Below, in pieces: positions 37,255-61,933 of a DNA stretch of 64,000 nt (the stretch's first letter is position 1; each line of letters starts with the position of its first letter). The stretch lies in NCBI GenBank assembly GCA_041483675.1, contig JBGPGE010000001.1:868-64867 (forward strand), given 5' to 3'. Source of the DNA: Candidatus Binatia bacterium. GTDB taxonomy: Bacteria > Desulfobacterota > Binatia > UBA9968. The notes under the pieces were generated by a model that saw only the letters and a list, made by a program, of their open reading frames with translations, made no database searches and was not told where the DNA came from. The translations under genes and the position numbers were made by a program.

Positions 37255-39399
37255 TCAGGGCTGCTCGCTTATTGAATCGGCAACTGCGGAAGAAACTTTA
37301 GTCTCTGCGAGGAGTTTTTCGTAAAGCCCGGTGATCTGCTTATGATCCAGGCCGTCGTCCTGCCAGTATTGCTGGACGTCGGGCCAGAGGCTGCCGATCC
37401 ACTTGACGTAGAACCGCAGCCGGTCCGACTCCTCGCGCTCCGGCTCGGCGCCCGGAGCGACCAGAACGCTCTCCGGCGTGTAAACGGTCTTCCATCCGGC
37501 GGCTTCGGCCTGCAAACAGAAGTCGATGTCGTGCAGGCCGGCGGTATAGCCTTCGTCGATACCGCCTAGGGCGAGAAAGAGCTCCCGGCACGCGAGCAGA
37601 CAACCGCTGACCGCCCGCATCGCCCGCCGCTTGGCGGCGCCGGGTAGAGAGGCCGGAAGGAGTTGATAGAGAGACGAGGGGCTGAAGTTCATATCGAAAG
37701 CGATGCCGGCATGGTGGATCATCCCCTGAGGGTCGATGATCTTTCCGCCCACGATGCCGGTCGCCGGATCTCGTTCCATCTCCTCGACCAGGGCCTCCAG
37801 CCATCCGGGCTGCGGAATCAGACCGGGGGGCAGGATGCAAAGATAGCGCCCCCTGGCCTCCCTCGCGGCAAGATTCAAGAGCGTCGCGATCGACGTCGAA
37901 GAAGACGGGATCGAACGGACATCCCCCTGGACAAAGTCCTGAAGAGCCCGGCTCTCGTCGCCGGCCCCTGCCAAAAGACATTCGTAAGAGATGTCGGCAG
38001 ACGTGTGCTGCGCGACCCCGATGAGGCTCTCCGCCACGCCTTCCATCGAGGTAAAGGGAATGACGATCGAGCAAAGGAATTCTTCGCCTCCCGGTTTCTT
38101 GGCTGACGGGACGTGCGACGAGTTGCGCCTGGCGGCCGGCGCCCGCTTGTTGACCTCCTCCCGCGTCTCGAGCATCTGTTGGATCAGGTCGAGCGTCCTC
38201 TCCATGTTTTCACCGCCAAGCGAATGGAGATTGCGAACCAGATATTGCTCTACCTTCTCTCTCCGCTCTTGCGAAACTCCCTTTTGCAGGATCGACTCCG
38301 CCACTTCCGGCAGGTCCGGCAAGTCGCCGGCCTGATCGGCGACGCCGAGCGAGGTAAACGAGTAATGTTGTCCCGGAACGCGGATCTCCACCAGCGGCTT
38401 GCCGAAGGCCAGTGCCTCCAGACCCGCGGTCGAATTGCCGAACACCGCGCAAACGTCGCTGACCGCCAGGAGCCGGTAGGTGTCGTCCTGCTGGAGCGAA
38501 CGAATGTTGCGAAAGCCGGCGAGCCTCTCGCCGATCTGGTCGATGATCCGTTTGTTGTTGAAGGGATGCCACTTGAAGATCAGGGTCAGGTCCTTCCTGC
38601 GGCGGGCCCAATCGAGCAACGGTTTGGGAAACTCAAAGTCGCTGCCATAACCGAGACCGCCCATCAGGACGGTGACCACGCGCGTTTTGTGGTCGAGCTT
38701 CAGCCGCCGCCGGGTCTGTTTCATCGCCTCCGGCTCCGTCGCCTCGCGTATCGCCGCCGGCAGGTGGGTATTCCCCACCAGATAGATTTTATCCGCCGAG
38801 CTGCCCGAGCGGACCAGCACTTCGCGCGCGGACTCTCCCCACGCGAAGCAGGCGGTCGAGTACTCCGTGTGATAGCGGTAGACTCCCGTGGGTCCCCAGT
38901 AGAGCCCTTCCTGAAGGGTGATGAAAGGAATTCGCAACTCGTTACAGAGATAGCCGAGCATCTTTCCCCAGCTGTTGAGCTCGTGCAGGGCCAGAACCAG
39001 ATCGGGCTTCTCGACCTCGAACATCCGCCGCAGGAGATAGAAATTCTCGAGATGCATGCGCAGCGCTTTGTCCTGGATGGAAAGAGTGAAGTGGTGGAGG
39101 ATGTCGTTCTCCAGGAATCTCTCCTTCCACTGACCCCTCACTTCCCGGTAGGCCCGCTCGATCTCATCGGCGACCTCCGGTGTCAGATAAGAGAACGTAT
39201 GATGGTAAGGCAAACCCTCATCCAGCATCGTGATCTCGAACGGGCTTTCCGCCTGGGCCGTGGGATAGAGGACTTCCATGCCCCGGGCCGCCAGCGCGCG
39301 CGTGATCGGGAAGAGGAAACGGCCGTGATGCTTGAGCGCGATGAAGCAGAACGCCTTCTTGCCTTTAAGATCCATAATGAGCGGCCTCCGGTTTGGCAT
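37255..39399 (-). CDS. Two-domain glycosyltransferase: N-terminal GT-B-like (TagF/capsule-synthesis-like) domain fused to a C-terminal GT2 (GT-A) domain. Candidate flagellin glycosyltransferase
   Basis: 714 aa. The N-terminal half has GT-B-like motifs (TVLMGGLGYG ... FKWHP ... GNSTAGLEALAFGKP). The C-terminal ~260 aa has a GT2 pattern (CSIVIPFTS ... DES ... CLLACRELF ... GGIDEGY). It is the first gene upstream of the flagellins. Confidence 0.65.
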   Translation of the reverse strand: MPNRRPLIMDLKGKKAFCFIALKHHGRFLFPITRALAARGMEVLYPTAQAESPFEITMLDEGLPYHHTFSYLTPEVADEIERAYREVRGQWKERFLENDILHHFTLSIQDKALRMHLENFYLLRRMFEVEKPDLVLALHELNSWGKMLGYLCNELRIPFITLQEGLYWGPTGVYRYHTEYSTACFAWGESAREVLVRSGSSADKIYLVGNTHLPAAIREATEPEAMKQTRRRLKLDHKTRVVTVLMGGLGYGSDFEFPKPLLDWARRRKDLTLIFKWHPFNNKRIIDQIGERLAGFRNIRSLQQDDTYRLLAVSDVCAVFGNSTAGLEALAFGKPLVEIRVPGQHYSFTSLGVADQAGDLPDLPEVAESILQKGVSQERREKVEQYLVRNLHSLGGENMERTLDLIQQMLETREEVNKRAPAARRNSSHVPSAKKPGGEEFLCSIVIPFTSMEGVAESLIGVAQHTSADISYECLLAGAGDESRALQDFVQGDVRSIPSSSTSIATLLNLAAREARGRYLCILPPGLIPQPGWLEALVEEMERDPATGIVGGKIIDPQGMIHHAGIAFDMNFSPSSLYQLLPASLPGAAKRRAMRAVSGCLLACRELFLALGGIDEGYTAGLHDIDFCLQAEAAGWKTVYTPESVLVAPGAEPEREESDRLRFYVKWIGSLWPDVQQYWQDDGLDHKQITGLYEKLLAETKVSSAVADSISEQP

Positions 39400-40582
39400 C
39401 GCGGGACGTCGTGAGGATGTGGCTGATAATTCCGTTCAGGCTTTTCCTGCGCAATAAGCGCCTCTCGATCCAGGATTCGATCATCGGGATGGCCCGCTCA
39501 GGCTCCGGTTCCATGACGAGGTGCTCCCCCACCCAGGCCTTCTGCCCGAACCGCTGGCTGATAATGGTGAGCTTGTCGTAAAAAGAAGATATCTCCGCGT
39601 AAACCGAACAGGCCGCCCCCCAGACGATATCGCCGTAGAGCAGCGTCCAGAGCCATCCCGGCTCCTCGTTGATGATGACGCAGGGAAGGTCCGCGAGTTC
39701 CTTTCGATAGACCTTCTCGACCATTTCTTTCTCCTTGAGACTGTGGCGCGCGACGTTCGGATCGACGTTCAACACCACGGCGACCGGATACTTGAGCAGC
39801 TTGAGGGCCTTGAGGATCTCCCGCGTCTCATAGATGAAGGCGACATTGTGCGGAATAAAAATCACGGTGCTGCCGCCGAGCATGCGAATCTTCGCCTTGA
39901 GCGCCACTGCCTGCTGAAAATATTCATCGAGCACGGAATCCTGCCGGCAAGAGAGCAGATAGACCTCTTCGGGCGGAAGAATGAAGCTCTGCCCGGGGGA
40001 GGCCAGCTCCTGGGACTCGACGAATGAACGCGAAAACTCGCTCTTGACCGCGTAGTAGTCGGCCAGAGACGCGGCGAAGGTCTGACGGTTGCCGAGCGGC
40101 GAAATTTCGACGCCGATCACGGTGGCCGCGGCTTTTTTTGCCTCCAGCGCCATGCCGCCGTAGAAATGAGACGAATCGGCGGTGGTGTTGTCGATGCCTA
40201 TAAGAGGATAGACCAGGACATCCGGCCGGATCGGCAGCGGCGGTCTCTTGTGGAGGCTGAGACAACCCATGTAGTCGTCCATCGCGATGGTTTTCCACAG
40301 CGGGAGCCGGCTGCCGGGAAAGTCGATGTCCTGAATCAGGCGGATCATCAGATCGGTCATCGAAATCGCGTGCTCGGGCAGATGGCGCACGACCTCTTCT
40401 TCGAGATGAAAACTTTTTATCGGGCTATCCGAGAACGCAGCGCAAATCTCCTTGGAGTGGCTAGCCACGCTCACCTCCCACTGCCCGGTGGCGGCGGCCA
40501 TGCTCACTAAATGGCGCAGTTTCCCGTACGTATATTTCCATTCCACTTCGCCGATGGCGAAAAGAACTTGCGGCTTTTTCAT
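39365..40582 (-). CDS. Hypothetical protein (405 aa) in the glycosylation island
   Basis: Co-oriented ORF overlapping the GT gene by 35 nt. I recognise no clear family motifs. Confidence 0.45.
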   Translation of the reverse strand: MKKPQVLFAIGEVEWKYTYGKLRHLVSMAAATGQWEVSVASHSKEICAAFSDSPIKSFHLEEEVVRHLPEHAISMTDLMIRLIQDIDFPGSRLPLWKTIAMDDYMGCLSLHKRPPLPIRPDVLVYPLIGIDNTTADSSHFYGGMALEAKKAAATVIGVEISPLGNRQTFAASLADYYAVKSEFSRSFVESQELASPGQSFILPPEEVYLLSCRQDSVLDEYFQQAVALKAKIRMLGGSTVIFIPHNVAFIYETREILKALKLLKYPVAVVLNVDPNVARHSLKEKEMVEKVYRKELADLPCVIINEEPGWLWTLLYGDIVWGAACSVYAEISSFYDKLTIISQRFGQKAWVGEHLVMEPEPERAIPMIESWIERRLLRRKSLNGIISHILTTSRDAKPEAAHYGS

Positions 40583-40752
40583 CCGTTAAGGCCTCCTGCG
40601 GCAGAACTCGGCTTGAACCGGAAGAAGCAATTAACATGCCCGGCAAAAGGGGAAAATTTTGCCGCCTGAAAAACATTTTTTCGCAGTCTGAATCCTTACT
40701 TAAGACTCTCCGCGAGAAACCGATTAGAAGCTTGAAGCAAGGAGTATTTGCC

Positions 40753-41370
40753 ATGAAGTCGCAAACTACATATCGCGAGATCGAAGATTTCTCTCCCGCC
40801 GGATTCCCGCTCTGCGAGCCTCGCAGCCCGATGGCGGTGAATAAGGGCAGCGTCCTGGCCTATCTGGCAACGGTCCTGGCGACCATGGCCCAGGAGCTGG
40901 CGCGTTCCCCAAAGACAGATTCCACCTGTCTCCTCTGTTCCGACGCGATCCACTCGACCCAGGTGACGGCCGAGGATCAAGGAAATCCGGTCCACGCCAT
41001 ATGCCTTGAGATGAAACAGCGAAAAAACGCCCTTTTGCAGAAGGCCAAACAGCACGATCATGCCTGCGAGCTCTGCGGGCAAAAAGTGCCGCCCACCGGC
41101 ATTTATCTCCACGAGGCCGGCTTGACGCTCTCCTACGCCTGCGCGGAGGGGAGACATGACGAGCCGAATCTCTTTTCTCTGCCGGTGACGACGGAGGAGA
41201 GCCGACGCGTCGGAATGTGGGAGGCCAGGCTGCGCGAGCGGCTGAAGCAAAAAGGATTCGTGCGTTGTTGTGAATGCGGCCGCCTGATCCACCAGGGAAA
41301 GGCCCGCCTCCTGGGGCCGGGATGGCACTATTGCGGCTGCCTGCCGGAGCTTTGGAGAACGGGACCCTAG
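40753..41370 (+). CDS. Cys-rich hypothetical protein (opposite strand to the island genes)
   Basis: Start at an internal Met preceded by AAGGAG. Multiple CxxC/CC pairs (LCSDAIH ... CELCGQ ... CCECGRL ... CGC). Confidence 0.4.
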   Translation: MKSQTTYREIEDFSPAGFPLCEPRSPMAVNKGSVLAYLATVLATMAQELARSPKTDSTCLLCSDAIHSTQVTAEDQGNPVHAICLEMKQRKNALLQKAKQHDHACELCGQKVPPTGIYLHEAGLTLSYACAEGRHDEPNLFSLPVTTEESRRVGMWEARLRERLKQKGFVRCCECGRLIHQGKARLLGPGWHYCGCLPELWRTGP

Positions 41371-41401
41371 CGGCATTCCGGGAAGATGAAGGGAAACCGC
41401 T

Positions 41402-41749
41402 GTGAACATCCCCGTCCTACTCCATGAGATCGCGCGATGGGCCGTTCCATTTTTGACCGTCCCCGCCGATGTCAAAAAGCGGGCGGACAGCGGTCTTCTG
41501 ACACCCGCGGATTGCCGACTCATTGCCGGGCAACTGAGCGACCTCGGACGATCTCTCGCCGGGAAAGACCACGCCAATGAGGCCGCGCGTTTGGGCGAGG
41601 AGACGGTGAAGCTCGTCCGCCTCGCGCAAGAGGACGGCGAGCTGAGAGAGTGCCTGCAATCCCTCTATGAGATATCCGGCCAACAGCCCCGGCGCGCCTG
41701 CCTGCAATTCTTTTTCTCCCTCGCTTCATTTCGCCGCACACCCCACTGA
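41402..41749 (+). CDS. Hypothetical protein
   Basis: 115 aa ORF following the Cys-rich gene. No recognisable features. Confidence 0.25.
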   Translation: MNIPVLLHEIARWAVPFLTVPADVKKRADSGLLTPADCRLIAGQLSDLGRSLAGKDHANEAARLGEETVKLVRLAQEDGELRECLQSLYEISGQQPRRACLQFFFSLASFRRTPH

Positions 41750-41909
41750 GGCCCGATCCTAACTCCCTAAGCGACTCCCCGGGGCGTAAGCTCGCGGCTT
41801 CCAAGTGAAAGCCGGTGCCCGGTCGGAGATCCCGCGCATCCGATACTGCCGGTGGAAATAAGTAGCTACCCATTGCGCGGGATCGGAGAGCGGGTGCCGG
41901 CTTTCGTCG

Positions 41910-42710
41910 TCAAGAGCGATTCTCTAAGAACTTCCACGACATCACTTCCTGCTTGGCCGCGCCCCCGGCCTGGGGAAAGACGAAGCTGTCGGGCCGCGTC
42001 GTATTGCGCGCCGTCAGCTCCGGCCGGCTGTCCAGGAAACGAACAATGTCGTCGGCGTCGAAATCGGCCCGGACGGGATACAGCGCCTCATAGATCTCCC
42101 TGACCAGATCGAGATCCTCCTGGTAATCGACGCACAGGCGGTAGCGCGGCCGATCAAGATTTTCCGGCGCGCGGAGGTTGAGCAGGCGGTAGCGCTGCGG
42201 GTTGCGATAGATAAAGGGCGAAACGTTGCCGCGGTCGTAGGGATCGCTCGTCAAACGCGACACTTCGCGCAGCAAGCCGGCCGAATAGAGCTGAACGTCG
42301 AAGCCGATGGGGAACGAAAGAACGTCGAGCACATTGGTGAGATAATCGCAGCCGCCCGTGAGATACCGGGTAACCGCAGCATCGACGATGCCGGGGTCGA
42401 TCAGCGGACAGTCACCGGTAATGTCGGCGACGATATCGGCGTCGAGCGACTGCGCGGCGCCGATAAGGCGCCCCAGCACGTCGTCCAGAGAGCCGCGGTA
42501 GCAGGCGACGCCTTCAGTTCCCGCAATCTCTTCGAGAACGTCGTCCGGCGGTTCCGCGCTCGTCGCCAAACAGACGGCATCGACTTTTTGGCATCGCTTC
42601 AACCGCTCCAGCAGGCGCCGCGCCATCGGTTGTCCGAGAATCGGCTTTAAATGTTTCCCCGGCAGCCGGCTGGAGCTCATCCGGCTCCTGACCGTGGCCA
42701 CAACTCGCAT
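41910..42710 (-). CDS. Cytidylyltransferase (SpsF/PseF-like CMP-sugar synthetase family, CTP_transf_3)
   Basis: N-terminal RSRMSSSRLPGKHL motif and 266 aa. Confidence 0.65.
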   Translation of the reverse strand: MRVVATVRSRMSSSRLPGKHLKPILGQPMARRLLERLKRCQKVDAVCLATSAEPPDDVLEEIAGTEGVACYRGSLDDVLGRLIGAAQSLDADIVADITGDCPLIDPGIVDAAVTRYLTGGCDYLTNVLDVLSFPIGFDVQLYSAGLLREVSRLTSDPYDRGNVSPFIYRNPQRYRLLNLRAPENLDRPRYRLCVDYQEDLDLVREIYEALYPVRADFDADDIVRFLDSRPELTARNTTRPDSFVFPQAGGAAKQEVMSWKFLENRS

Positions 42711-42932
42711 CGAAGCTATCCCTCTTTTTTTGGTTCTTCCGGGTTTCCTGTGGGGGAGTATTCACCACAGAGGCACAGAGTTCGCAGAGTTCGGAGTATT
42801 ACTTCATCAAAAACTCTTTACTCCGCGACCTCAGCGCCTCTGCGGTGCAATATCCGAATCCTTCTTTACCGCGAACTGGAACAGCGTTGACCCGCTTACC
42901 CATACAGAAGTCTCAAGCCCCCCTTTTTTCGG

Positions 42933-44162
42933 CTACTCCAACAACTCGATCTTCGGCGTCAGCGAGAGCACCTTGGAACTGAGACCGTAACGATCGCGGA
43001 TGTCGCGGGTGATTTCGGCGCTGTACTGGGAGCAGACCAGAATGTAGTCGGGCGCGTTTTTCTGAAGAACCTCAGGCGGCGACACCGCGGTATCGAGATT
43101 CAAAAACTTAAGGCCGTGTTTTCTTCCATCCCGATCGACCACTGCCGTCACCCGCTCGGCGAGCAGCGGCGCGAGCGTCAAGAGCGTGATGCCGAAGGAG
43201 CCGGCGCCCCAGAGGGCGAGGGTCGATCCCTGGCGATTCAGCTTTTCAGCGAGAGAAGTCAACTGCGAGAGATAGGCGTCGAACCGGCTCGCGAAATCCT
43301 TGGCCTGCCCGACCAACCGCTCGACGCGAGACCGGTCGTTGGAGATCTCCGGCCTTCCGGACGCTATGCTGCATAAGGCGACTAAATTCCCCGTCTCATC
43401 AAACAGCCGCTCGACTTTCAGCCCCGCCCGCTCCAGACAAACGCGGAGAGAATTGGGCGTGAAAACCGAGAGATGCTCGAAGTGACAAGGGAGACCCAAG
43501 GGATTGTGCTCGACGAAATAGGCCCCGTTGGGCGTCTCGATAGCGACGAAGCCGTCCGCCCGAACACACTCGCGCGCAGCCGCCGCAAACTTCACGGGAT
43601 CGTCGAGATGCTCGATCAGGTGGCGATTGATCACCGCGCCGAAGCTGCCGCGATCGAACAGCTCGGGTGAAAAGAATTCGCGGACGATCGGAATGCCTCG
43701 CTGCTCGCCGATCTTCGCCCCTTCGCTAGGATCGCAGCCGAGCACCGAAAACCCCTCTTTGGCGAGCTGCAGGAGTAGATAGCCGTCGTAGCAGCCGATC
43801 TCCAGGATGCGCGCTCCCGCTGGCAGCCGCGGCTTGATGTTCTCTTTGAACACGGCGACAAATTCATCCGCGTCCTCAGTGGCGAAGCCCAGCTCCAGCT
43901 TGGATAGATAGGTGGTGTAGAGGCTGCGATAGAGGTCCTGAAGCATGTCGTCGCTCGGTCTCGACAGCAGAAGAAAATGGCCGCAATCGCGACAAATGCC
44001 CAGCCTGAGCGGTAAAGTGGGCGAAATATTCTTGCTTTTCAGCTCGGCGATCCCCGCGTCGGAGATCGGCCGCAGCACCAGGGGAAATTGCGGAAACGCG
44101 CAGACCGGCTCGATATTTTTGCCGCGGCAGACATTACACTCGTGGACATCCAGTAGTTTCAT
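42933..44162 (-). CDS. SAM-dependent methyltransferase with N-terminal Zn-ribbon (sugar C-/O-methyltransferase type)
   Basis: CNVCRG ... CRDCGH zinc-ribbon, then class-I MTase motif ILEIGCYDG. The start at 44162 has a strong RBS GGAGAGG. Confidence 0.7.
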   Translation of the reverse strand: MKLLDVHECNVCRGKNIEPVCAFPQFPLVLRPISDAGIAELKSKNISPTLPLRLGICRDCGHFLLLSRPSDDMLQDLYRSLYTTYLSKLELGFATEDADEFVAVFKENIKPRLPAGARILEIGCYDGYLLLQLAKEGFSVLGCDPSEGAKIGEQRGIPIVREFFSPELFDRGSFGAVINRHLIEHLDDPVKFAAAARECVRADGFVAIETPNGAYFVEHNPLGLPCHFEHLSVFTPNSLRVCLERAGLKVERLFDETGNLVALCSIASGRPEISNDRSRVERLVGQAKDFASRFDAYLSQLTSLAEKLNRQGSTLALWGAGSFGITLLTLAPLLAERVTAVVDRDGRKHGLKFLNLDTAVSPPEVLQKNAPDYILVCSQYSAEITRDIRDRYGLSSKVLSLTPKIELLE

Positions 44163-44225
44163 AATTTTCCTCTCCGTTCTTGGAACTTGCTCCATTTCAC
44201 TGGAGGTCGACTACCTCCCCATTCC

Positions 44226-45235: not shown

Positions 45236-45480
45236 TGCAACAGCGCGCCTTCGCCGCCGAGTTTGGAAGCCAGGGCCTCCACGCTGTCCATCTTCTCGAT
45301 CTCCTCGGCGCTGAAGTGAACTTGGAACTCTTCTTCGAGCGCCAAGATAGTGCGCAGGTGATTGAGCGAGTCCCATTTTTCGCAATCGGCGAGCGGCGAC
45401 TTGAGCGGCACCCGCTCCACGGCGATGGCCAGCATATCCGCGACCACCTGCCGGACTTTTTGGATGATGACATTGTTCAT
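45232..45480 (-). CDS. Acyl carrier protein
   Basis: 82 aa with the DSL phosphopantetheine-attachment motif (EKWDSLNHLRTILALEEEF). Confidence 0.8.
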   Translation of the reverse strand: MNNVIIQKVRQVVADMLAIAVERVPLKSPLADCEKWDSLNHLRTILALEEEFQVHFSAEEIEKMDSVEALASKLGGEGALLQ

Positions 45481-56032: not shown

Positions 56033-56033
56033 A

Positions 56034-56066
56034 AATTTTGGATTTTCGATTTTAGATTTTGGATTA
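56034..56066. repeat. Heptamer array (Ngatttt units) immediately upstream of the asnB start codon
   Basis: aaatttt ggatttt cgatttt agatttt ggatt abuts the ATG at 56032. A similar motif occurs at 6405-6420. Confidence 0.6.
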
Positions 56067-56070
56067 AAAC

Positions 56071-56090
56071 GGGCGCGATGAATCGCGCCC
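56071..56090 (-). terminator. Rho-independent terminator after the neuB-like gene
   Basis: GGGCGCGA-TGAA-TCGCGCCC stem-loop followed on the minus strand by GTTTTAATCC. Confidence 0.6.
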
Positions 56091-56103
56091 CTACGCTTGG
56101 CTC

Positions 56104-56176
56104 TTACCTCTTTCTTTCTATCCTCTATCCTCCATCCTCGATCCTCCTGCCTCTTGCCTCCTGCCTTCTGCCTCCA
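56104..56176. repeat. Heptamer-periodic array (tatcctc/gatcctc/ctgcctc units) spanning the 3' end of the neuB-like gene
   Basis: About 10 degenerate 7-bp units. They encode the last ~18 aa of the ORF (..EAEGRRQEAGGSRMEDRG*) and the stop. Confidence 0.65.
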
Positions 56177-57188
56177 CCTGCAGGTGGCGCTCCAGCACCG
56201 CCTCGTGCCGTCGGAGCGGCACCGCCAGGCGGCGCCCCGCGAGATAACGCGCCGCCGAGGGCGGCAGCCCGTTGCCCGGTCTCACAAATTCAAAATCGTC
56301 AAGCGACAGCCGCGCCCCCGCCGGCAGGTTGCGGGCGGCCACCACGCTCCTTCGCGCCGCCGCCATCGTCTCCATCTCCGAGACGCCGGGTCGCTTTTTG
56401 CCGTCGCCCATCATCTCATCCAACGAGTGAAGCGCCTGGGCGAGCCGCTTGAGATCGGCGGGATCGGCCGACATCGCGTGGTCACGAAACGTGGCGCGGC
56501 TCTTGTCCAGCGTGAAATGCTTTTCAATGACGCGCGCGCCGAGACAGGCGGCGACGATCGCCGCCTCGATGCCCAGCGTGTGGTCCGAGTAGCCGGTGAT
56601 AAAACCGAACGCCTCTTCCAGCGTCTCGATCGCCTTGAGGTTGGCCTCGGCCAGCGGCGTCGGATAGGCGCTGACGCAATGGAGCAGCGCGAGCGAGTCG
56701 AACAACAACTTCTCCGGCGGAAGATTGAGCGCGACCGTCGCCACCGCCCGCTCGACCTCTTCGAGCGTCCCCATGCCGGTCGAGAGAATCATCGGCTTGC
56801 CCGTCTCAGCGGCGGCCGAAAGGAGCTGGACGTAATTGAGATCGCCCGAAGCGATCTTGATCGCGTCGGCCAGCCCCGCCACTTCGCCGAGGCTATGCGG
56901 ATCGAACGGCGTGGCGATGAACAACATTCCTTCGGATCGGGCGAGATCGGCCATCGCCTCGAACGTCCCTTCCGGCAGCCGGAATCGCTCCAGTTGCGCG
57001 ACGCGCTCCTGCTGGGCGGCGTTCACCAGCCGTTCGGCGCGGATCGCCTGGACTTTTACGGCGTCGGCGCCGGCTTCGGCGGCCGCGGCCACCATTTCCA
57101 TCGCCAGCGACGGCTCCCCTTCGTGGTTGTTGCCGATCTCCGCGACGAGCAGGCGCTGTCGCTTCAAGTCGCGGCCTTCGAGAATCAT
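56118..57188 (-). CDS. N-acylneuraminate-9-phosphate/pseudaminic/legionaminic acid synthase family (NeuB/PseI/LegI-like) with C-terminal SAF domain
   Basis: Hallmark AEIGNNHEG motif, YPTP motif, and a C-terminal antifreeze-like domain. The start is at the internal Met (57188), overlapping the GNAT stop. Confidence 0.8.
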   Translation of the reverse strand: MILEGRDLKRQRLLVAEIGNNHEGEPSLAMEMVAAAAEAGADAVKVQAIRAERLVNAAQQERVAQLERFRLPEGTFEAMADLARSEGMLFIATPFDPHSLGEVAGLADAIKIASGDLNYVQLLSAAAETGKPMILSTGMGTLEEVERAVATVALNLPPEKLLFDSLALLHCVSAYPTPLAEANLKAIETLEEAFGFITGYSDHTLGIEAAIVAACLGARVIEKHFTLDKSRATFRDHAMSADPADLKRLAQALHSLDEMMGDGKKRPGVSEMETMAAARRSVVAARNLPAGARLSLDDFEFVRPGNGLPPSAARYLAGRRLAVPLRRHEAVLERHLQVEAEGRRQEAGGSRMEDRG

Positions 57189-58009
57189 CCCAAACACCTC
57201 GCCTTCTTCAAATGACAATGGAGCACGTAAGCGGTCTCGGCGATGCGGAACCCGAGCCCTTCGTAGAGTCTGAGGGAAAGCAGATTGGCGGCTTGCGTGC
57301 CGACACGCAGCAACAGTCCCGCGGACGCCGCCTCTTCTTGCAGATTGGAGACCAGCGCCTTGCCGACGCCCGAGCCCTGGTGCGTCCGATCCACTCCGAT
57401 GAGGTCGATCGTGCGGCACGGCTCGCTGTCGAGGCTCGACGCGAGCACCGCGAGAAACCCGACCGGCGTCCCGTGGCGCAAAGCAACGAGCAGCTTCTCG
57501 CCGCGCTGCCGCGTGAGGTAGCTCTTCACCCATTCGCGCTTGATCGCGTGAGCGAGCGCGGTTGGGATTTCAGGGTCGAGGCGAAAGCGCGAGTAGGCAA
57601 AGCAGGAGCCGGCGATGTCCAACACCGCGTCATATTCGGCGGGCAGAATTTCCCGCACCGTGACCGGCAACGCATCGTTCTCCCGCGCGCGCCGCGGCGA
57701 TTGGTATTCGAAAGTTACGTTCACGTCCACTACCCCGAAGCCCGACTGCGCCAACGCTTGCACAAAATCCACCCGCCGGGTCGGGACCTTGGCATAGTAA
57801 AACGCCCGAGCGCCCGCTGAGGCGCCTGTCAGCAGCCGCAGTTGATGCGCGGCAACCGCTTCTCCAAGGTCGGCGGCGGAAGGCCGGCCGCCGTCGAACG
57901 GGACCTTAAAGGCATCGTAGCCGAAGATCCTCGACAGCCAGGCGTCGCGCTCAATCTTCACCCCGGACACGACGGGCCGCGCCGGGGATGGGGATGGTTC
58001 GAGGTTCAT
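57185..58009 (-). CDS. GNAT-family N-acetyltransferase (PseH-like candidate)
   Basis: GNAT motif A (LIGVDRTHQGSGVGKALV). The start at 58009 overlaps the SDR stop (ATGA). Confidence 0.65.
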   Translation of the reverse strand: MNLEPSPSPARPVVSGVKIERDAWLSRIFGYDAFKVPFDGGRPSAADLGEAVAAHQLRLLTGASAGARAFYYAKVPTRRVDFVQALAQSGFGVVDVNVTFEYQSPRRARENDALPVTVREILPAEYDAVLDIAGSCFAYSRFRLDPEIPTALAHAIKREWVKSYLTRQRGEKLLVALRHGTPVGFLAVLASSLDSEPCRTIDLIGVDRTHQGSGVGKALVSNLQEEAASAGLLLRVGTQAANLLSLRLYEGLGFRIAETAYVLHCHLKKARCLG

Positions 58010-59052
58010 CAGGCGACTTTTTTCTCGGCCGGAGCGATCTTCCGGTCCAGCTCGCGGTACCACTCGATGTATCTGGGGAAGCCCACCTCCACCGGATTCG
58101 CCGGCTGGTAGCCGAGCAGGCGGCGCGCTTTATCGACACACAAGGTTCCGCGCATCGGCATGAGATGGTCGCGCTCGACGTACTCCACGCGCACGGCGGG
58201 AAACGCCTGCTTGACGACTTCGAGGAGATCTTTGATCGAGCGCGACTCGCCGTAGGTCAGATTGAAGATCTGATTTTTCGCCTCCGGCCGCTGCAAGACG
58301 AGCAGAATCCCCTGCACCAGGTCGTCGATGTGGGTGAAGTCGAGTTTTTCGCCGCCGTCGCCGTCGACGCGCAGCGTGGCGCTGCTCATCGCGCTCTCGA
58401 TAAAGATCTGCCCGACGCGGCGGCTCACGCAGCGCGGCCCGTAGAGCGCCGAGGGGCGGACGATCGTGTAGGGCAGGTCGAACACCTGCTGGTAGGCGAT
58501 GACCAGTTTTTCGCCGCCGACCTTGAGCGCGCCGTAGATGCCGATCGGCTCCAGCGGATGCGTTTCCTCGACCTGCTCGGTGAGAAAGTTGCCGTAGGCC
58601 ATGCTGGAGGAGAAAAAGACAAACTGTTCGAGCGCGACGCCGCGCGCGTAGTCGAGCGCGTTCTCCAACGTCACCAGGCTGTTGTCGAACGTGCTGTAGG
58701 GGTCCTTGTTGGAGCGCCCGGCGTGGGCGATCGCCGCGAGGTGGACGATGGCCTGCGGCTGGATCTGGCCAAGCACCCGCGATAGGCCGTGATAGTCGCG
58801 GGCGTCGAGCATGGAGATCGGCACCCTGGCTTCGCGCAAGAGCTCCAGCCGCTCGCCGATGATGCTGAGATAGAGCTCCCGCTGCGCCAGCTCCGGCATC
58901 TTGGCCGCGAACGACAGCAGGTTGTTGTGCTGCATGCTGTCGATGATGCTCACCTCGGCATGCTGCGCGGCGAGCGCGATCGCCAGGTTGTGGCCGATGA
59001 ATCCTGCGCCGCCGATCAATGCTATTTTTCGTCCTTTTAACGAAACACTCAT
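58009..59052 (-). CDS. NAD-dependent epimerase/dehydratase (extended SDR; nucleotide-sugar 4,6-dehydratase/epimerase)
   Basis: GGAGFIGHNL Rossmann motif and YGALK catalytic YxxxK. 347 aa from the internal Met. Confidence 0.8.
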   Translation of the reverse strand: MSVSLKGRKIALIGGAGFIGHNLAIALAAQHAEVSIIDSMQHNNLLSFAAKMPELAQRELYLSIIGERLELLREARVPISMLDARDYHGLSRVLGQIQPQAIVHLAAIAHAGRSNKDPYSTFDNSLVTLENALDYARGVALEQFVFFSSSMAYGNFLTEQVEETHPLEPIGIYGALKVGGEKLVIAYQQVFDLPYTIVRPSALYGPRCVSRRVGQIFIESAMSSATLRVDGDGGEKLDFTHIDDLVQGILLVLQRPEAKNQIFNLTYGESRSIKDLLEVVKQAFPAVRVEYVERDHLMPMRGTLCVDKARRLLGYQPANPVEVGFPRYIEWYRELDRKIAPAEKKVA

Positions 59053-60218
59053 TATTGCATCTCCTTTGTCGCCTGTGTCGCCTGGACGAAACTTTCCGCT
59101 ATGTAATCCATGTCCGCCGGCGTCAGGTGCGGCCCGACCGGCAACGCGATCGACTGGTCGCTGATCCGCGCGGCGTTGGGAAAATCCTCGGCGCGGTAGC
59201 CGTATTTGTCCCGGTAATAGGTCATGCGCGGCACCGGCTGGGGATAGTAAACGCTCGTGCCCACGCCGCGCTGCTGAAGCCGGGCGACGATCTCGTTGCG
59301 CTGCTTGCCCAACTCGCCGAGCAGCACGGCGCTGAAGCAATAGTGGCTGTTGTCCTGCGACTCCTCGACCGCGTCCAAGACCAACACGCCTTCCTGCTTC
59401 CCGAGATGGGACTTAAGCCGATAGAAATTGTCGCGGCGGCGCTCGAGGTTTTCCTCGATGCGGGCGATCTGCTGCCGGCCGAGCGCCGCTTGCAGCTCGC
59501 TCATCCGATAGTTGAGGCCGAGCGTCGGCACGTCGTAGAGGCCCGGCACCGAGCGTTCGCCGTGCGTCCGGTCCACTCCAAAGGCGCGCAGCTTATCCAC
59601 CCCTGCCGCGACGTCCTTACGGCGCGTCACCAGCATCCCGCCCTCTCCGGTGGTGATGTGCTTGACCGGGTAGAAAGAAAAACAGCCGGCGTCGCCGAAC
59701 AGCCCGACGTGCTGTCGCCGATAACGCGAGCCGAGCGCGACGGCGCAGTCTTCCACGACTTTCAGGCCCCGGCGCTCAGCCAACGCCATGATCTCCGTCA
59801 TGCCGCAGGGAATGCCGAGCAGGTGGACCACCGACAGCGCCTTGGTCTTGGGCGTCAGCGCCGCTTCGATCCGCTCCGCCGTGAGATTTCCCGTCGCCGG
59901 GTCGCAATCGACGAAGATCGGCTTCGCGCCGACCCATTCCACGGCGTGGACGGTGGCGACGTGCGTCTGGGCGGGCACGATCACTTCGTCGCCGGGGCCG
60001 ACGCCGAGTTGCAGGTAGGCCAGGTGCAGCGCCGCCATGCAGGAGCTCAAGCTCACGCAATGGGCGCCGCGGCCGATAAACGCGCCGAACTCTTCCTCGA
60101 ATGCTTTGCCTTCGGGGCCGTGCGTCAACACCGGCCCTTGCAGCACGGCCGTCACCGCCTTGCGCTCGTCATCGGTAATCCAGGGTTTGCCGAAAGGAAT
60201 CGATCGTTGCGTAGTCAT
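59052..60218 (-). CDS. DegT/DnrJ/EryC1/StrS-family PLP-dependent sugar aminotransferase (PseC/LegC-like)
   Basis: Conserved Lys region (SFYPVKHITTGEGGML) and overall DegT pattern. About 389 aa from the internal Met. Confidence 0.85.
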   Translation of the reverse strand: MTTQRSIPFGKPWITDDERKAVTAVLQGPVLTHGPEGKAFEEEFGAFIGRGAHCVSLSSCMAALHLAYLQLGVGPGDEVIVPAQTHVATVHAVEWVGAKPIFVDCDPATGNLTAERIEAALTPKTKALSVVHLLGIPCGMTEIMALAERRGLKVVEDCAVALGSRYRRQHVGLFGDAGCFSFYPVKHITTGEGGMLVTRRKDVAAGVDKLRAFGVDRTHGERSVPGLYDVPTLGLNYRMSELQAALGRQQIARIEENLERRRDNFYRLKSHLGKQEGVLVLDAVEESQDNSHYCFSAVLLGELGKQRNEIVARLQQRGVGTSVYYPQPVPRMTYYRDKYGYRAEDFPNAARISDQSIALPVGPHLTPADMDYIAESFVQATQATKEMQ

Positions 60219-61225
60219 ACGTAGGGAACCTCCTCTTCTAATCCGGATTGCAAGGACCGGTCGCACGCCGCGCAAACGCTGATCGCGTCGAACATCTCCT
60301 GCGTGTGGCCGCCGAGATCGGCATCGGACAAAATCGCGTCGACGAACGGGCCGATCCCCACGCCCTTGCCCGCGGGGAGCGCGCCGAGGTCAATCGGTTT
60401 AGCCGCCGTCGCCGGATCTCTCGTCGAGTGCCAGCGCGCGCCCGCATCGTCGGTGACGAGCGTCGCCTCGGTGCCGAACAGGCGCAAGACGTGCTGGTGG
60501 CGATGGACGCAGCCGAAGTTCGCGGTGACGCGGGCGAGCAGTCCCGACGGGCAGCGCAACTCAGCGGCAACGTAATCGAGATAGCGAAACGGCGTGTTCT
60601 CGGAGCAGATGCGGTTGCCCGCGGCATGGACCGACTGCGGCCGCTCGCCGGTGAGCCACAACAGCAGGTCCACGAGATGGACGCCGCCTCCCGCCATGAC
60701 GGAATAGTTTTCCACCCGGCTGCGCCATCCTTCCATGATCTTGCCGAGCCGTCCGTAAAGATAGTCGCCGTCGAAGGCATAGAGCTTGCCGAAGCGGCCA
60801 GCGTCGATAGTCTCTTTGATCCAGCCGTAGAGCGGCGCCTGGCGCAGCACCATGTTGGAGGAGAGCTTCAACCGCCCTCCGTGTCTCAGCCAGGCGCGTT
60901 TGATCGCGAGCAGCTCGTCCACCGTGCGGCAGAGCGGCTTTTCGACGAAGACGTGCTTGCCCGCTTCGAGCGCGGCGATCGCCTGGCCGAAGTGTGCGTC
61001 GTCGTAGGAGGCGATCGAGATCGCCTGCACTTCGGGATCTTCGAGAATCTGTTCGAAATGGGTGGCGGCTTTTTCCGCGCCCAGCTCGGCCGCCAGCGCG
61101 CCCGCTTTGGGCGCGTCGATGTCGTAGAGCCATCTGAGCCGGCAGCGACCCGTCGCCCGATAGGCGCGGGCATGCTCCGCCCCGATGCCCAGACCGACTA
61201 CTGCGACGCCGAGTGGAGCGCTCAT
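60215..61225 (-). CDS. Gfo/Idh/MocA-family NAD(P)-dependent oxidoreductase
   Basis: N-terminal Rossmann fold VAVVGLGIGAEHA and the EKPL motif. About 336 aa from the internal Met. Confidence 0.75.
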   Translation of the reverse strand: MSAPLGVAVVGLGIGAEHARAYRATGRCRLRWLYDIDAPKAGALAAELGAEKAATHFEQILEDPEVQAISIASYDDAHFGQAIAALEAGKHVFVEKPLCRTVDELLAIKRAWLRHGGRLKLSSNMVLRQAPLYGWIKETIDAGRFGKLYAFDGDYLYGRLGKIMEGWRSRVENYSVMAGGGVHLVDLLLWLTGERPQSVHAAGNRICSENTPFRYLDYVAAELRCPSGLLARVTANFGCVHRHQHVLRLFGTEATLVTDDAGARWHSTRDPATAAKPIDLGALPAGKGVGIGPFVDAILSDADLGGHTQEMFDAISVCAACDRSLQSGLEEEVPYV

Positions 61226-61890
61226 GCGACCCGCTTGACCTCCTGCATGAGGACTTTCGGTGGAAACAACTCCTGAGAGCACAAGTGTTCCAGATGAATC
61301 AGATCCTCCAGCGTATCGACCGCGTAGCTCGTCTCGGCGAGCTTGGGCTCGGCCGACTCGATATTGACGATGTTGAAAATTTCCGGGTGGTAATAATAAA
61401 TTTGCGTGGCGTGCTCTTTTTGCTGTGGCGTCAGCCGGCTCGCGTCGATCGCCGCGAAGGTGGCCGCGCGAATCAGCTCCACGCTCTGCCCTTTGGGGAA
61501 GGTCCGCGGGAAGACGTTGGTTACGAGGTCTATATCTTTACCGTCTTGATAGCGCATGGCGGCGCTGAGCAGCGAAGGATCGAGCAGCGGGCTGTCGGCG
61601 CAGAGACGAAAGAACCAGTCGCAGGGGTTGGCGCGGAGACAGCCCTGGAACCGCTCCACGACGTTCTCCAGCGGGCCGCGGAACACCGAGACACCGAGCT
61701 CCCGGACGTAGCAGGCCAGCGGATCGTCCGCCGCCGTCGCGCTGGTGGCGACGGTGATGCGGTCGCGCGCCACCGCCTCGGCGGCCGCGTCGATCAGGCG
61801 GGCAATAATCGCCTTGCCTTGAAACGGCGCGAGGACTTTGCCGGGAAATCGCCTGGAACCCATGCGGGCCTGAATGAATACTCGGACCAT
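61222..61890 (-). CDS. Acylneuraminate cytidylyltransferase family (CMP-nonulosonic acid synthetase, NeuA/PseF/LegF-like)
   Basis: N-terminal IQARMGSRRFPGKVL motif. About 222 aa from the internal Met. Confidence 0.8.
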   Translation of the reverse strand: MVRVFIQARMGSRRFPGKVLAPFQGKAIIARLIDAAAEAVARDRITVATSATAADDPLACYVRELGVSVFRGPLENVVERFQGCLRANPCDWFFRLCADSPLLDPSLLSAAMRYQDGKDIDLVTNVFPRTFPKGQSVELIRAATFAAIDASRLTPQQKEHATQIYYYHPEIFNIVNIESAEPKLAETSYAVDTLEDLIHLEHLCSQELFPPKVLMQEVKRVA

Positions 61891-61933
61891 TGCCCCAACG
61901 CATGAAGCAAGATGCAGGCCACGCAAAGAACAA

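Follow-up and report, generated by a model that had tools for sequence, protein, structure and literature searches.

Layout of the island

The window (the whole 64,000-nt stretch of DNA analyzed) carries 19 close-set genes at 37255-61926, which the ORF map places upstream of a flagellin gene, fliD and fliS. A sequence-only reading had already described an island beside these three genes and on the same strand. The ORF map and the Pfam/NCBIfam scans confirmed this, and every gene family it had named was recovered when the families were checked with HMMs. The 25-kb sugar island adjoining the flagellin genes is real. All island genes, fliD, fliS, flagellin A and the promoters given below are on the minus strand. 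The gene set had been called contiguous. The genes are indeed close-set and share a strand, but they are interrupted at 40.6-41.9 kb by two plus-strand ORFs, a Cys-rich one of 205 aa (40753-41370) and another of 115 aa (41402-41749), both lacking a family match in Pfam/NCBIfam. These ORFs divide the island into a 17-gene operon (61890 to 41910) and a 2-gene unit, p405 and GT714. Both of them are also kept beside the p405-GT714 pair in L007 (66% and 57% identity), L008 and L011. ATGA-type stop/start overlaps occur all through the island, and the transcription units therefore seem to be tightly coupled. The closest relatives of the host, an uncultured bacterium, were Binatia and "Deltaproteobacteria" MAGs.

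The presumed acceptor is flagellin A (36103-36969; 288 aa, Flagellin_N and Flagellin_C), with fliD (34608-35948) and fliS (34192-34590) downstream of it. It shares 83% identity with flagellin B (32086-32958). The central regions of the flagellins, previously described as Ser/Thr-rich, are enriched, although mildly at most (26-27% Ser+Thr versus 20% overall; 27% in flagellin A). Upstream of flagellin A we found a sigma-28 (FliA)-type promoter, TAAAGTTT-N11-GGCGATAA (37075-37101), which gives this gene its own promoter 154 bp past the GT714 stop codon. A motif match also revealed a weaker second copy at 37274-37300. The window has two matches to the sigma-28 motif versus 0.15 expected by chance. 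A sigma-54-like site upstream of p405 was not above chance.

Probable nonulosonic-acid core pathway

The core contains a NeuB-family nonulosonate synthase with a SAF domain (56118-57188; PF03102, 233.6 bits; AEIGNNHEG motif) and a DegT/PseC/LegC-type sugar aminotransferase (59052-60218; PF01041, 375 bits). The Pfam/NCBIfam scans also assigned a WecD-like GNAT N-acetyltransferase (57185-58009) and an SDR-type NDP-sugar 4,6-dehydratase/epimerase (58009-59052), which is RmlB-like and weakly LegB-like. A family scan identified a Gfo/Idh/MocA oxidoreductase (60215-61225), a family that also adjoins CTP_transf_3 in L004, L005 and L087. Two genes belong to CTP_transf_3 (PF02348). One encodes a 266-aa cytidylyltransferase (41910-42710; 97.7 bits), the probable CMP-nonulosonic acid (NulO) synthetase. 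This type accompanies the p405-GT714 pair elsewhere: L003, L019 and L070 have homologues next to the pair, and L004, L005 and L089 have CTP_transf_3-Aminotran_3 fusions there. The other is a divergent nucleotidyltransferase (61222-61890; 72.7 bits), with 31 bits against the PseF model versus a cut-off of 205.7.

In the NCBIfam scan of the core genes, every pseudaminic (Pse) and legionaminic (Leg) equivalog model stayed under its cut-off. The synthase scored 286 versus 399.65 with NeuB_NnaB and 219 versus 340.25 with PseI, and the aminotransferase scored 298 versus 423.5 with PseC and 213 versus 420 with LegC. The synthase is on its own branch, outside both clades defined by Pse and Leg context. 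The homologue comparison found no PseB, PseG, PseH, LegG, LegH or PtmE homologues in the island core. At the sequence level, the biosynthetic core matches neither the canonical pseudaminic nor the canonical legionaminic pathway. Because it falls under all Pse and Leg equivalog cut-offs, it may make something other than a 5,7-diamino nonulosonate.

Decoration genes

Three SAM methyltransferases were found, rather than the four counted previously. One has a Zn-ribbon (42933-44195; CxxC...CxxC in the translation), and its domain set (Methyltransf_13/23/14) is that of sugar C-methyltransferases. The others are a Methyltransf_11 protein (50866-51618) and a second Zn-ribbon enzyme with an N-terminal extension (51695-52978; Methyltransf_23). 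An acylation module comprises an AAC(3)-like N-acyltransferase (44366-45235, start codon refined; PF02522, 65 bits), an 82-aa acyl carrier protein (ACP; 45232-45480; PP-binding, 29.6 bits; WDSL serine motif) with 40 bits against ACP models, under the cut-off, and an FkbH-type glyceryl-ACP loader (45477-47420; FkbH_N and HAD-IIIC; TIGR01686, 312.8 bits versus a cut-off of 146.65). The AAC(3)-like enzyme presumably passes an acyl group from the ACP to a sugar amine. The set also has an aminopeptidase-fold protein (47404-48798; DUF4910/DUF2172/HTH_47, the last a wHTH; PF16254, 297 bits) that matches PDB 3K9T (E=2.6e-111) and is of the same described type as Campylobacter jejuni Cj1295. Two AsnB-like glutamine amidotransferases (48803-50779, Asn_synthase, 201 bits, plus GATase_7; 54203-56032, TIGR01536, 381 bits versus a cut-off of 267) and a WbuX/PseA-type PP-loop N-acetyl-sugar amidotransferase (53052-54206; TIGR03573, 338.5 bits versus a cut-off of 203.2; SGGKDS PP-loop) complete the set.

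The sugar had been predicted to be unusually elaborate. This was overstated, as Pse in C. jejuni NCTC 11168 bears both acetamidino and 2,3-di-O-methylglyceroyl groups (PMC3068675, PMC7099621). Di-O-methylglyceroyl-Pse in C. jejuni requires the aminopeptidase-like gene Cj1295 (PMC3068675), and the FkbH-domain gene cj1302 lies within the same flagellin locus (PMC3068675, PMC7099621). The WbuX/PseA-type, FkbH-ACP-acyltransferase, Cj1295-like and methyltransferase genes of the island resemble the C. jejuni 11168 genes linked to this sugar. As the decoration set parallels that of C. jejuni 11168, the sugar would be elaborate, yet with precedent. Tannerella forsythia makes Pse5Am7Gra.

The p405-GT714 pair

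GT714 (37255-39375; P0001; 706 aa, given as 706/714) has an N-terminal GT-B domain and a C-terminal degenerate GT2 domain. Its start is overlapped by 11 nt by p405 (39365-40582; 405 aa), an orphan GT-B-fold partner. The N-domain of GT714 is Epimerase_2/TagF/BFO_1060-like, with Pfam Epimerase_2 above threshold. Its top profile match was the BFO_1060 family glycosyltransferase at 52.5 bits (E=4e-14), versus 24.8 bits for WecB. LQEG and KWHP motifs were invariant in the homologue alignment, and the GT714 model shows a GT-B fold (pLDDT 93). Stand-alone N-domain proteins occur. Six loci from Leg contexts group in the N-domain tree as a separate clade, distinct from relatives in Pse contexts. Genetic data show that Pse/Leg transfer depends on members of the BFO_1060 family, which have D/E-D/E-G and HP motifs (PMC5420450). 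The closest characterized relatives of the N-domain, Tannerella BFO_1060/Tanf_01245, use an S-layer oligosaccharide rather than flagellin as the acceptor of NulO (PMC5420450). In the clade of the window, the DNGS-D and NND(T) motifs seen in the nearest GT2 relatives are missing from the GT2 domain; some clades still have Asp at the DXD site (SPD or DEY in Desulfobacterales). p405 had no Pfam or NCBIfam match and no sequence match to PDB, and its AlphaFold2 model has a GT-B fold (pLDDT 86). Of the glycosyltransferases announced for the island, one two-domain GT-like protein thus stands, while p405 is GT-B by predicted structure only.

The organization had been equated with that of the Campylobacter, Helicobacter, Aeromonas and Clostridium loci. 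It differs from them in two defining respects, Maf and the core: the island core has no PseB/G/H or LegG/H/PtmE homologues, and the window as a whole carries no Maf gene. Family scans of the window found neither Maf nor FlmG, and neither was present in six annotated related loci.

We compared 80 species-level representative genomes with GT714 homologues. In 68 of the 80, p405 was directly upstream of GT714, and 56 of these 68 pair-carrying loci had flagellin and/or NeuB nearby. Considering only the 67 loci with enough flanking sequence, a flagellin gene started no more than 1.5 kb downstream of the pair in 29. NeuB was found within 10 kb in 45 of the 80 genomes. The remaining 12 GT714 homologues were solo, lacking p405, flagellin and NeuB in their vicinity, and came mostly from magnetotactic and other Nitrospirota MAGs. 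In several phyla, the pair is set among flgK/L, fliW, flagellin, flaG, fliD, fliS and motAB. It also accompanies complete Pse-type islands containing PseG (L004, L005, L088) and complete Leg-type islands containing LegG (L087, L034, L073, L075). The terminal pair is linked to flagellin genes in many genomes, and the proposal of a flagellin-linked NulO island whose decoration genes cover amidino, acyl/glyceroyl and methyl groups is supported. As a whole, the earlier interpretation was partly supported.

Proposed function of the island

Three GT-like modules (two GT-B and one GT2-like) exceed the need of a single transfer. One might place a linking sugar on flagellin, and a second cap that sugar with the decorated nonulosonic acid, in line with the Aeromonas flagellin glycans, which are heterogeneous and extend a Pse-like sugar (PMC7874193), and with the Asp retained at the DXD position in some clades. 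However, the minimal islands L089, L004 and L005 hold NulO-pathway genes only and no second activated-sugar pathway, and both acidic motifs are gone from the GT2 domain in the clade of the window. Such an oligosaccharide seems unlikely. We give similarly little credence to the GT-B modules (the GT714 N-domain and/or p405) being divergent NDP-sugar hydrolysing 2-epimerases/hydrolases that supply the missing LegG/PseG-type step, with flagellin attachment left to the GT2-like domain alone or to an enzyme encoded elsewhere. The Epimerase_2 match fits this, and HVEAG, GDT and PVHP align with LQEG, HEL and KWHP of GT714. In p405, VDNNT, LEVS and IPH recall GDT, EAG and HRREN, by eye only. The window holds no other PseG or LegG candidate, so in this organism the pair could still have such a role. 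However, GT714 has not kept the third catalytic carboxylate (PEE) or the HRxEN histidine of the epimerases, and the BFO_1060 transferase profile scored 28 bits above WecB. Orthologous pairs coexist with bona fide LegG (L087, L034, L073, L075, L078) and with PseG (L004, L005, L013, L014 and others), and therefore the pair is not the missing biosynthetic hydrolase/epimerase there. As both nucleotide/metal motifs are gone from the GT2 domain in the clade of the window, these islands would on such a reading also hold no plausible transferase.

LPS or capsule synthesis is a common role of NulO clusters, and the place of the island beside flagellin could be coincidental or reflect co-regulation. The S-layer target of the Tannerella relatives, the solo Nitrospirota homologues with no link to flagellar genes and a nearby NDP-sugar dehydrogenase gene (28531-29856) point that way. 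However, no island protein has transmembrane-like segments, all being predicted soluble, and family scans of the island found no flippase, polymerase, priming transferase, Wzx/Wzy, ABC exporter or O-antigen ligase, which speaks against a part in LPS or capsule synthesis. So do the flagellar surroundings of the pair in several phyla, the flagellin right after it in 29 of 67 loci and the separate sigma-28 promoter of flagellin A. We regard this role as very unlikely.

It seems probable that this is a filament glycosylation island, in which a 17-gene NulO operon supplies a sugar that p405 and GT714 transfer to flagellin, replacing Maf/FlmG. The translationally coupled operon would make a CMP-activated sialic-acid-like (nonulosonic) sugar. 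An NDP-hexosamine would be dehydrated by the SDR enzyme, aminated by DegT and N-acylated by GNAT; the NeuB-family synthase would condense the product with PEP, and a CTP_transf_3 enzyme would activate it. In this scheme no step falls to the Gfo/Idh/MocA oxidoreductase or to the second nucleotidyltransferase. By analogy, the WbuX/PseA-type amidotransferase may convert an N-acetyl to an acetamidino group, and the Cj1295-like aminopeptidase-fold protein may take off an N-acyl group. FkbH would then load a glyceryl unit onto the ACP, from which the AAC(3)-like enzyme would move it to the freed amine. The three methyltransferases may methylate glyceroyl or amidino groups, and the two AsnB-like enzymes may form amide bonds. 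Neighborhood and fold suggest that p405 and GT714, as a separate two-gene unit upstream of the sigma-28 flagellin gene, would put the sugar on flagellin Ser/Thr in the cytoplasm before export, as a substitute for Maf or FlmG. The likeliest catalytic module is the GT-B N-domain of GT714, whose kin include TagF-type CDP-donor enzymes as well as the BFO_1060 NulO transferases of Tannerella. An acceptor-binding or adaptor role would probably fall to p405 and/or the GT2-like C-domain, from which the acidic motifs for nucleotide and metal binding are gone. Judged from its genes, the island is of a known kind, but here the usual attaching enzyme (Maf or FlmG) is absent and an uncharacterized pair appears in its place. 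Should flagellin NulO transferases have a third class, p405 and GT714 are its strongest candidate.

Gene content and operons of the island

Nearly all coding capacity of window positions 37255-61926 lies on the minus strand, and this segment had been described in the sequence-only reading as a contiguous flagellin-linked nonulosonic acid (NulO) island. The G+C content is ~61% throughout the window. Pfam and NCBIfam scans bore out all of the gene families that had been named. The island encodes, on the minus strand, a NeuB-family synthase with an AEIGNNHEG motif (PF03102, 233.6 bits against a gathering threshold of 22.1; SAF, 40.9 against 21), two CTP_transf_3 nucleotidyltransferases, a DegT aminotransferase, an SDR, a GNAT, a Gfo/Idh/MocA oxidoreductase and two AsnB-like amidotransferases. 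A WbuX/PseA-type PP-loop amidotransferase with an SGGKDS motif (TIGR03573, 338.5 bits, cut-off 203.2) and an FkbH protein (TIGR01686, 312.8 bits, cut-off 146.65) are on the same strand. The gene after FkbH encodes an 82-aa ACP, which is absent from the mechanical ORF list, and is followed by the gene of an AAC(3)-like acyltransferase assigned by Pfam. The remaining minus-strand products are an aminopeptidase-fold DUF4910/DUF2172/wHTH protein (PF16254, 297 bits; PF09940, 114; PF16221, 86), three SAM methyltransferases found by Pfam (two carry Zn-ribbons), a 706-aa protein whose halves resemble Epimerase_2 and GT2 (GT714, 37255-39375) and a 405-aa protein without an assigned family (p405, 39365-40582).

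Four methyltransferases had been claimed rather than three. The ORF at 50819-51643 is a wrong frame of the methyltransferase at 50866-51618, and those at 40696-41577 and 41520-41873 run antisense to conserved plus-strand genes. The claim of contiguity also fails, as a 1.3-kb stretch (40583-41909) carries two conserved plus-strand genes. One encodes a Cys-rich product of 205 aa with several CxxC motifs (40753-41370) and the other a product of 115 aa (41402-41749). Neither had a match in Pfam or NCBIfam. Both are kept beside p405 and GT714 in three related loci, L007 (66% and 57% identity, at the same position), L008 and L011. Their products might regulate the p405/GT714 module or assist it as accessory proteins.

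After start-codon refinement, neighboring genes mostly overlap by 1-4 nt. On this basis, 17 genes form one operon (61890 to 41910), and p405 and GT714 form a separate unit of two (40582 to 37255). Next on the same strand come flagellin A, fliD, fliS and a FliT-like gene. Farther downstream, there is a second flagellin gene (83% identical) with its own fliS, and then motAB. The linkage is that of a flagellin glycosylation island: on one strand, flagellin, fliD and fliS are preceded by the NeuB, DegT, SDR and CTP_transf_3 genes at distances of 0.3-25 kb, and related loci are alike. A near-consensus sigma-28 promoter, TAAAGTTT-N11-GGCGATAA, is located 105 bp upstream of flagellin A, with only 0.15 matches expected per window. 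A candidate sigma-54 promoter upstream of p405 (GGGCATGTTAATTGCT, 40626-40641) was rejected, as the window contained eight matches against 8.4 expected. The Ser/Thr enrichment attributed to the flagellin is real, although it is weak and not diagnostic.

The second filament locus (28531-33488) comprises flagellin B (290 aa, 32086-32958), its fliS (31621-32049), motA/motB (29983-31661) and a response regulator with a single domain (33096-33488). It also includes an NDP-sugar dehydrogenase (28531-29856; TIGR03026, 439 bits), which is of the UDP-ManNAc/GlcNAc dehydrogenase type. No sigma-28 match with three or fewer mismatches was found upstream of flagellin B. A REP-like palindrome of ~30 nt, GTCATTCCCG-N4-6-CGGGAATCCAG, has four intergenic copies, at 28424, 29886, 37201 and 44229. 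Two of them flank the NDP-sugar dehydrogenase gene, and the other two come after GT714 and after a Zn-ribbon methyltransferase gene.

Two other contigs of ~16.9 kb each, from GCA_041490805.1 (L001) and JGI 3300053057 (L002), carry identical p405, GT714, flagellin, fliD and fliS. Both stop in the gap that separates the p405/GT714 unit from the decoration operon, at about 41430-41500 of the window. This suggests an assembly break at the junction, possibly caused by strain heterogeneity.

Decoration genes and the predicted sugar

The DUF4910/DUF2172 protein was matched by family description, not by sequence, to the Cj1295-type aminopeptidase-like polysaccharide biosynthesis proteins (PMC3068675). 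In C. jejuni, Cj1295 is needed for the flagellin modification 7-acetamido-5-(2,3-di-O-methylglyceroyl)-pseudaminic acid and its acetamidino variant (PMC3068675), and the FkbH-domain gene cj1302 is found in the same locus (PMC7099621). Tannerella forsythia makes Pse5Am7Gra, a pseudaminic acid (Pse) with acetimidoyl and glyceroyl groups (PMC5378307). The block of DUF4910, FkbH, ACP, AAC(3)-like, methyltransferase and WbuX genes thus predicts an N-(O-methyl)glyceroyl, N-acetamidino nonulosonate. By analogy with these two organisms, the predicted sugar is elaborate yet of a known kind. It had been called unusually elaborate; the elaboration stands, and the decoration has precedents in both C. jejuni and T. 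forsythia.

By the same analogy, the aminopeptidase-fold protein would take off an N-acyl group and FkbH would charge the ACP with a glyceryl unit. This unit would then be passed to the freed amine by the AAC(3)-like enzyme and methylated by the methyltransferases, and WbuX would make the amidino group. The scheme gives no role to the two AsnB-like enzymes or to the methyltransferase at 42933-44195. The latter has a Methyltransf_13 (Zn), Methyltransf_23 and Methyltransf_14 architecture. Such an architecture is typical of NDP-hexose C-methyltransferases, which hints at C-methylation rather than O- or N-methylation by this enzyme. In a Pse-type island of another genome (L088), a HisH-like GATase gene and a HisF-like gene (585-1226 and 1-574) adjoin two NeuB paralogues. 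We take them to resemble WbuY/WbuZ-type partners for acetamidino formation.

A biosynthetic core outside the textbook pathways

The NulO core of the window, judged by sequence, matches neither the Pse nor the legionaminic acid (Leg) textbook pathway. All of the NCBIfam equivalog models of these pathways scored below their cut-offs in the window: PseC (298 bits, cut-off 423.5), LegC (TIGR04181; 213, cut-off 420), PseI (219, cut-off 340.25), NeuB_NnaB (TIGR03569; 286, cut-off 399.65), LegB (TIGR04180; 91, cut-off 475) and PseF (31, cut-off 205.7). We also searched the window at E<1e-8 with marker proteins from two loci of unambiguous context, L005 (Pse type) and L087 (Leg type). At this threshold, the window had no match to the PseB of L005, a Polysacc_synt_2 inverting 4,6-dehydratase, and no homologue of PseG, a GT28-like UDP-sugar hydrolase, or of PseH. 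Likewise, the hydrolysing 2-epimerase LegG, the PglD-like LegH and the nucleotidyltransferase PtmE of L087 had no window match at E<1e-8. The SDR of the window is RmlB-like and reached only 100 bits against LegB, and its GNAT is WecD-like.

The synthase itself does not type the sugar. In a tree of 59 NeuB homologues labeled by context, it was placed on a long branch outside the Pse-context and Leg-context clades. Against PDB sequences, it scored 141 bits with NeuB, 131 with PseI and 116 with SpsE. Equivalogs, PDB comparison and tree each favored neither Pse nor Leg. Because NeuB adjoins the DegT, SDR and GNAT genes, a 5,7-diamino-type nonulosonate is the probable product.

The locus organization had been likened to that of Campylobacter. 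C. jejuni does have NulO synthase, aminotransferase, dehydratase and CMP-transferase genes in its flagellin-modification locus, and it shares the Cj1295-type protein and the FkbH-domain gene tied to the glyceroyl and acetamidino forms of Pse. However, C. jejuni has several Maf paralogues alongside the canonical enzymes PseB/C/H/G/I/F and LegB/C/H/G/I/F, whereas the window lacks PseB/G/H, LegG/H, PtmE and Maf, and the likeness does not extend to the organization.

A minimal island was observed between fliW and the pair formed by p405 and GT714 in another genome (L089, 3773-8767; also in L010). It consists only of an SDR, NeuB, a methyltransferase and a CTP_transf_3-Aminotran_3 fusion, and is devoid of DegT, GNAT and PseG. 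This suggests a further ulosonic-acid route that supplies the same transferase pair.

A conserved gene pair in islands without Maf or FlmG

Two classes of proteins have been described for the attachment of Pse or Leg to flagellin, the widespread Maf and FlmG, which is limited to Caulobacterales. MAF_flag10 (PF01973) had no match among the scanned ORFs of the 64-kb window and was absent from the gene calls of the related loci L003-L005 and L087-L089. No FlmG-like TPR plus GT-B architecture was found among the scanned window ORFs, and neither GT714 nor p405 had a TPR match. The sole GT-like genes in the window are p405 and GT714, just upstream of flagellin A. Each of them defines a family of "hypothetical" proteins. 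We found no description of the GT714/p405 family, or of a non-Maf, non-FlmG NulO flagellin transferase, in the incomplete library of literature that could be searched.

Relatives at 28-55% identity have the same neighborhood arrangement, again without Maf. The typical order is NulO genes, a ~400-aa protein, a ~700-aa protein, flagellin(s), flaG, fliD, fliS and motAB. In one related locus, this series comes directly after flgM/N/K/L, csrA and fliW. We surveyed 80 loci, with one genome scanned per species. The p405 gene was directly upstream of GT714 in 68 of the 80. A flagellin gene was present anywhere in the locus in 38 of 80, and started within 1.5 kb downstream on the same strand in 29 of the 67 loci with enough flank. 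NeuB was found within 10 kb in 45 of 80. Flagellin or NeuB was present in 56 of the 68 pair-carrying loci.

The other 12 loci have a solo GT714 homologue, with no p405, flagellin or NeuB within 10 kb (L006, L039, L052, L064, L066, L067, L077, L079, L081-L083 and L086). They are mostly from magnetotactic and other Nitrospirota MAGs. These homologues may act on another acceptor. In L006, the neighbors are genes for a cNMP-binding protein and a CHASE2 Ser/Thr kinase.

The pair is carried by MAGs labeled Binatia, 'Deltaproteobacteria', Desulfobacterales, Nitrospirota, Methylomirabilota, Zixibacteria and Verrucomicrobiia, and by the cultured Desulfospira joergensenii DSM 10085 (L070) and Dissulfurispira thermophila (P0177). 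It occurs with complete Pse-type islands that include PseG (e.g. L004, L005, L013, L014 and L088) and with complete Leg-type islands that include an Epimerase_2 LegG, a PglD-like LegH and PtmE (L087, L034, L073, L075 and L078). Therefore, the pair adds to the biosynthetic genes and does not stand in for a hydrolase or epimerase among them, which leaves it, by elimination, as the sole transferase candidate of these islands.

In Desulfobacterales, the pair adjoins genes of giant flagellins of 945 to ~1360 aa (L003/L043, 13131-22091; L087, 12269-18385; L070, 4633-8718), in up to three tandem copies. In those of L003 and L087, the inserted region matches Flagellin_IN and, faintly, left-handed beta-helix (Hexapep/LbH) models.

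Anatomy of GT714 and p405

The AlphaFold2 models were confident, with a pLDDT of 93 and a pTM of 0.91 for GT714 and a pLDDT of 86 for p405. Residues 1-420 of GT714 are predicted to adopt a GT-B fold. The best profile match of this N-terminal domain was the BFO_1060 family (NF046086; 52.5 bits, E = 4e-14), ahead of WecB (24.8 bits). This match falls far short of the 200-bit cut-off and spans only profile positions 209-365 of 365, the C-terminal Rossmann half with the HP motif. The Pfam Epimerase_2 match (43.5 bits, gathering threshold 30.6) is also partial, covering profile positions 120-287 of 347. Two motifs of GT714, L-Q155-E156-G157 and K268-W-H270-P271, are invariant across 82 sequences.

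In an alignment to a solved 2-epimerase, the EAG motif corresponds to Q-E156-G, GDT to H-E132-L and HP to H270-P271. The E132 and E156 positions are conserved, while PEE is replaced by PTG and HRAEN by MGGLG, so that both of these motifs are lost in GT714. The equivalent catalytic residues of E. coli WecB are presumably D95, E117, E131 and H213. As the QEG and HP motifs of GT714 occupy the epimerase EAG and HP positions, fold and motifs do not by themselves tell a transferase from an epimerase.

The N-domain also occurs in stand-alone proteins. A profile search with this domain alone, aimed at distant relatives such as FlmG, returned at least 120 matches, and all of those listed belonged to the same family. 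In the N-domain tree, six Leg-context loci of Desulfobacterales form one clade, apart from Pse-context loci with the same genus label. This is weak evidence that the N-domain follows the donor sugar.

The C-terminal domain of GT714 is modeled as a GT-A/GT2 fold, with PF00535 at 23.1 against a threshold of 23.3. In the clade of the window, VDNGS-D is replaced by LAGAG and FLNNDT by ILPPGL (L-P-P-G at the DXD position), and HH..ES is missing. The D-x-D-[LF]-C aspartate (D618) is retained. It seemed from the motif losses that this is a degenerate GT2 domain. Its nearest relatives are GT2 modules, of which giant multi-GT proteins (P0225-P0362; 1000-4400 aa) contain 2-7 copies. Modules in P0283, P0290 and P0309 retain FLNNDT or FLDNDT and ED-x-DLC, and P0343 has two GT2 modules. 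Counts from the representative-library search are dominated by the GT2 domain and thus are no measure of family size.

No Pfam, NCBIfam or PDB sequence match was obtained for p405; PDB matches to ribosome-inactivating proteins were spurious. Its model is also of the GT-B type. Homology with the GT714 N-domain had an hhalign probability of only 11%, and the two are regarded as having a fold in common rather than as established paralogues.

Comparison with known transferases

Like Maf, the pair would transfer CMP-Pse or CMP-Leg in the cytoplasm to flagellin Ser/Thr as an O-linked modification, and it is encoded next to flagellin and NulO genes. Maf-2 and GlfM offer a possible catalytic and adaptor arrangement for the pair (bioRxiv 10.1101/2023.12.03.569772). 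However, the window lacks MAF_flag10, the candidate catalytic module is GT-B and Maf is GT-A-like, and the partner is a 405-aa GT-B-fold protein without a Pfam or NCBIfam match.

FlmG of Caulobacter and Brevundimonas (TPR plus GT-B) is likewise a two-module protein with a GT-B domain. It combines a donor-specific GT-B domain with a non-catalytic acceptor-binding module, and Pse- and Leg-specific versions exist. Compared by architecture rather than by sequence, GT714 differs in lacking TPR, in having the GT-B domain N-terminal on a degenerate GT2 domain and in being accompanied by an extra GT-B-fold protein. In addition, FlmG has been reported in Caulobacterales only.

Tannerella Tanf_01245 and TFUB4_00887 are genetically required for adding Pse5Am7Gra or a Leg derivative and have D/E-D/E-G and HP motifs (PMC5420450). 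The GT714 N-domain has its best profile match in this GT-B/TagB-like BFO_1060 family. Its Q155-E156-G157 and H270-P271 stand in the order expected of the family motifs, but the same positions align with EAG and HP of the 2-epimerases. One of the Tannerella donors, Pse5Am7Gra, is an amidino and glyceroyl NulO, like the sugar predicted here. In contrast, the Tannerella NulO goes onto ManNAcA of a protein-bound oligosaccharide, not directly onto flagellin, and the similarity to the family is limited to 52.5 bits against a cut-off of 200 over ~40% of the profile, with another domain architecture. The motif positions EAG/QEG, GNT and HP are common to the GT714 N-domain and to WecB/MnaA, NeuC/LegG and TagF/TarL. 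Of the four key residues of the 2-epimerases, GT714 conserves only two, and its genomic role is also different, since the pair is found together with genuine LegG or PseG.

Proposed mechanism and alternatives

Sialic-acid-like glycosylation of flagellin is needed for filament assembly in many bacteria. We think it fairly probable that the window encodes a flagellin NulO island together with its transferase pair. The 17-gene operon would make and decorate a CMP-nonulosonate in the cytoplasm; its proteins are all predicted to be soluble, and it has no export genes. Before flagellin is exported, the N-domain of GT714 would attach the sugar to its Ser/Thr residues. The acceptor would be recognized by the degenerate GT2 domain, by p405 or by both, in analogy to the FlmG TPR domain and to GlfM as the partner of Maf-2. 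Gene families, operon structure, the sigma-28 promoter, neighborhood conservation, predicted folds and motif losses are results of the analysis, whereas the enzymatic steps, the choice of catalytic module and the glycosylation of the flagellin are proposed from them.

It is unlikely that the GT-B modules act as an epimerase or hydrolase. The fold similarity and the missing LegG/PseG step of the window are in line with such a role. However, the genomic argument separates the two activities: a genuine LegG or PseG is encoded beside the pair elsewhere. Catalytic residues have also been lost, and the islands would be left without a transferase. The same modules might instead build an oligosaccharide together, above all in clades that retain an Asp at the DXD position; we consider this improbable as well. 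Still less credible is a target other than the flagellum, given that the pair is embedded in flagellar operons and that no membrane or export component was found.

Flagellin glycosylation islands as a kind, and the decoration chemistry, were already known. What is new is a non-Maf, non-FlmG candidate transferase pair conserved in several phyla and a non-textbook core. The odds seem to us about even that p405 and GT714 represent a third class of flagellin NulO transferases, evolutionarily independent of Maf and FlmG. In such a class, a GT-B catalytic domain related to the Tannerella enzymes would be joined to a degenerate GT2 domain and work with its own GT-B-fold partner, and there would be Pse- and Leg-associated lineages. 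Its substrate in the window would come from a non-canonical NulO pathway. If real, it would explain how filaments are modified in sulfate reducers, Nitrospirota and Binatia that lack Maf and FlmG. A GT-B enzyme with Pse- and Leg-associated lineages would also enlarge the small glyco-engineering toolbox for sialylation-type modification of proteins, and the non-textbook NulO core is a lead toward new sugar chemistry.
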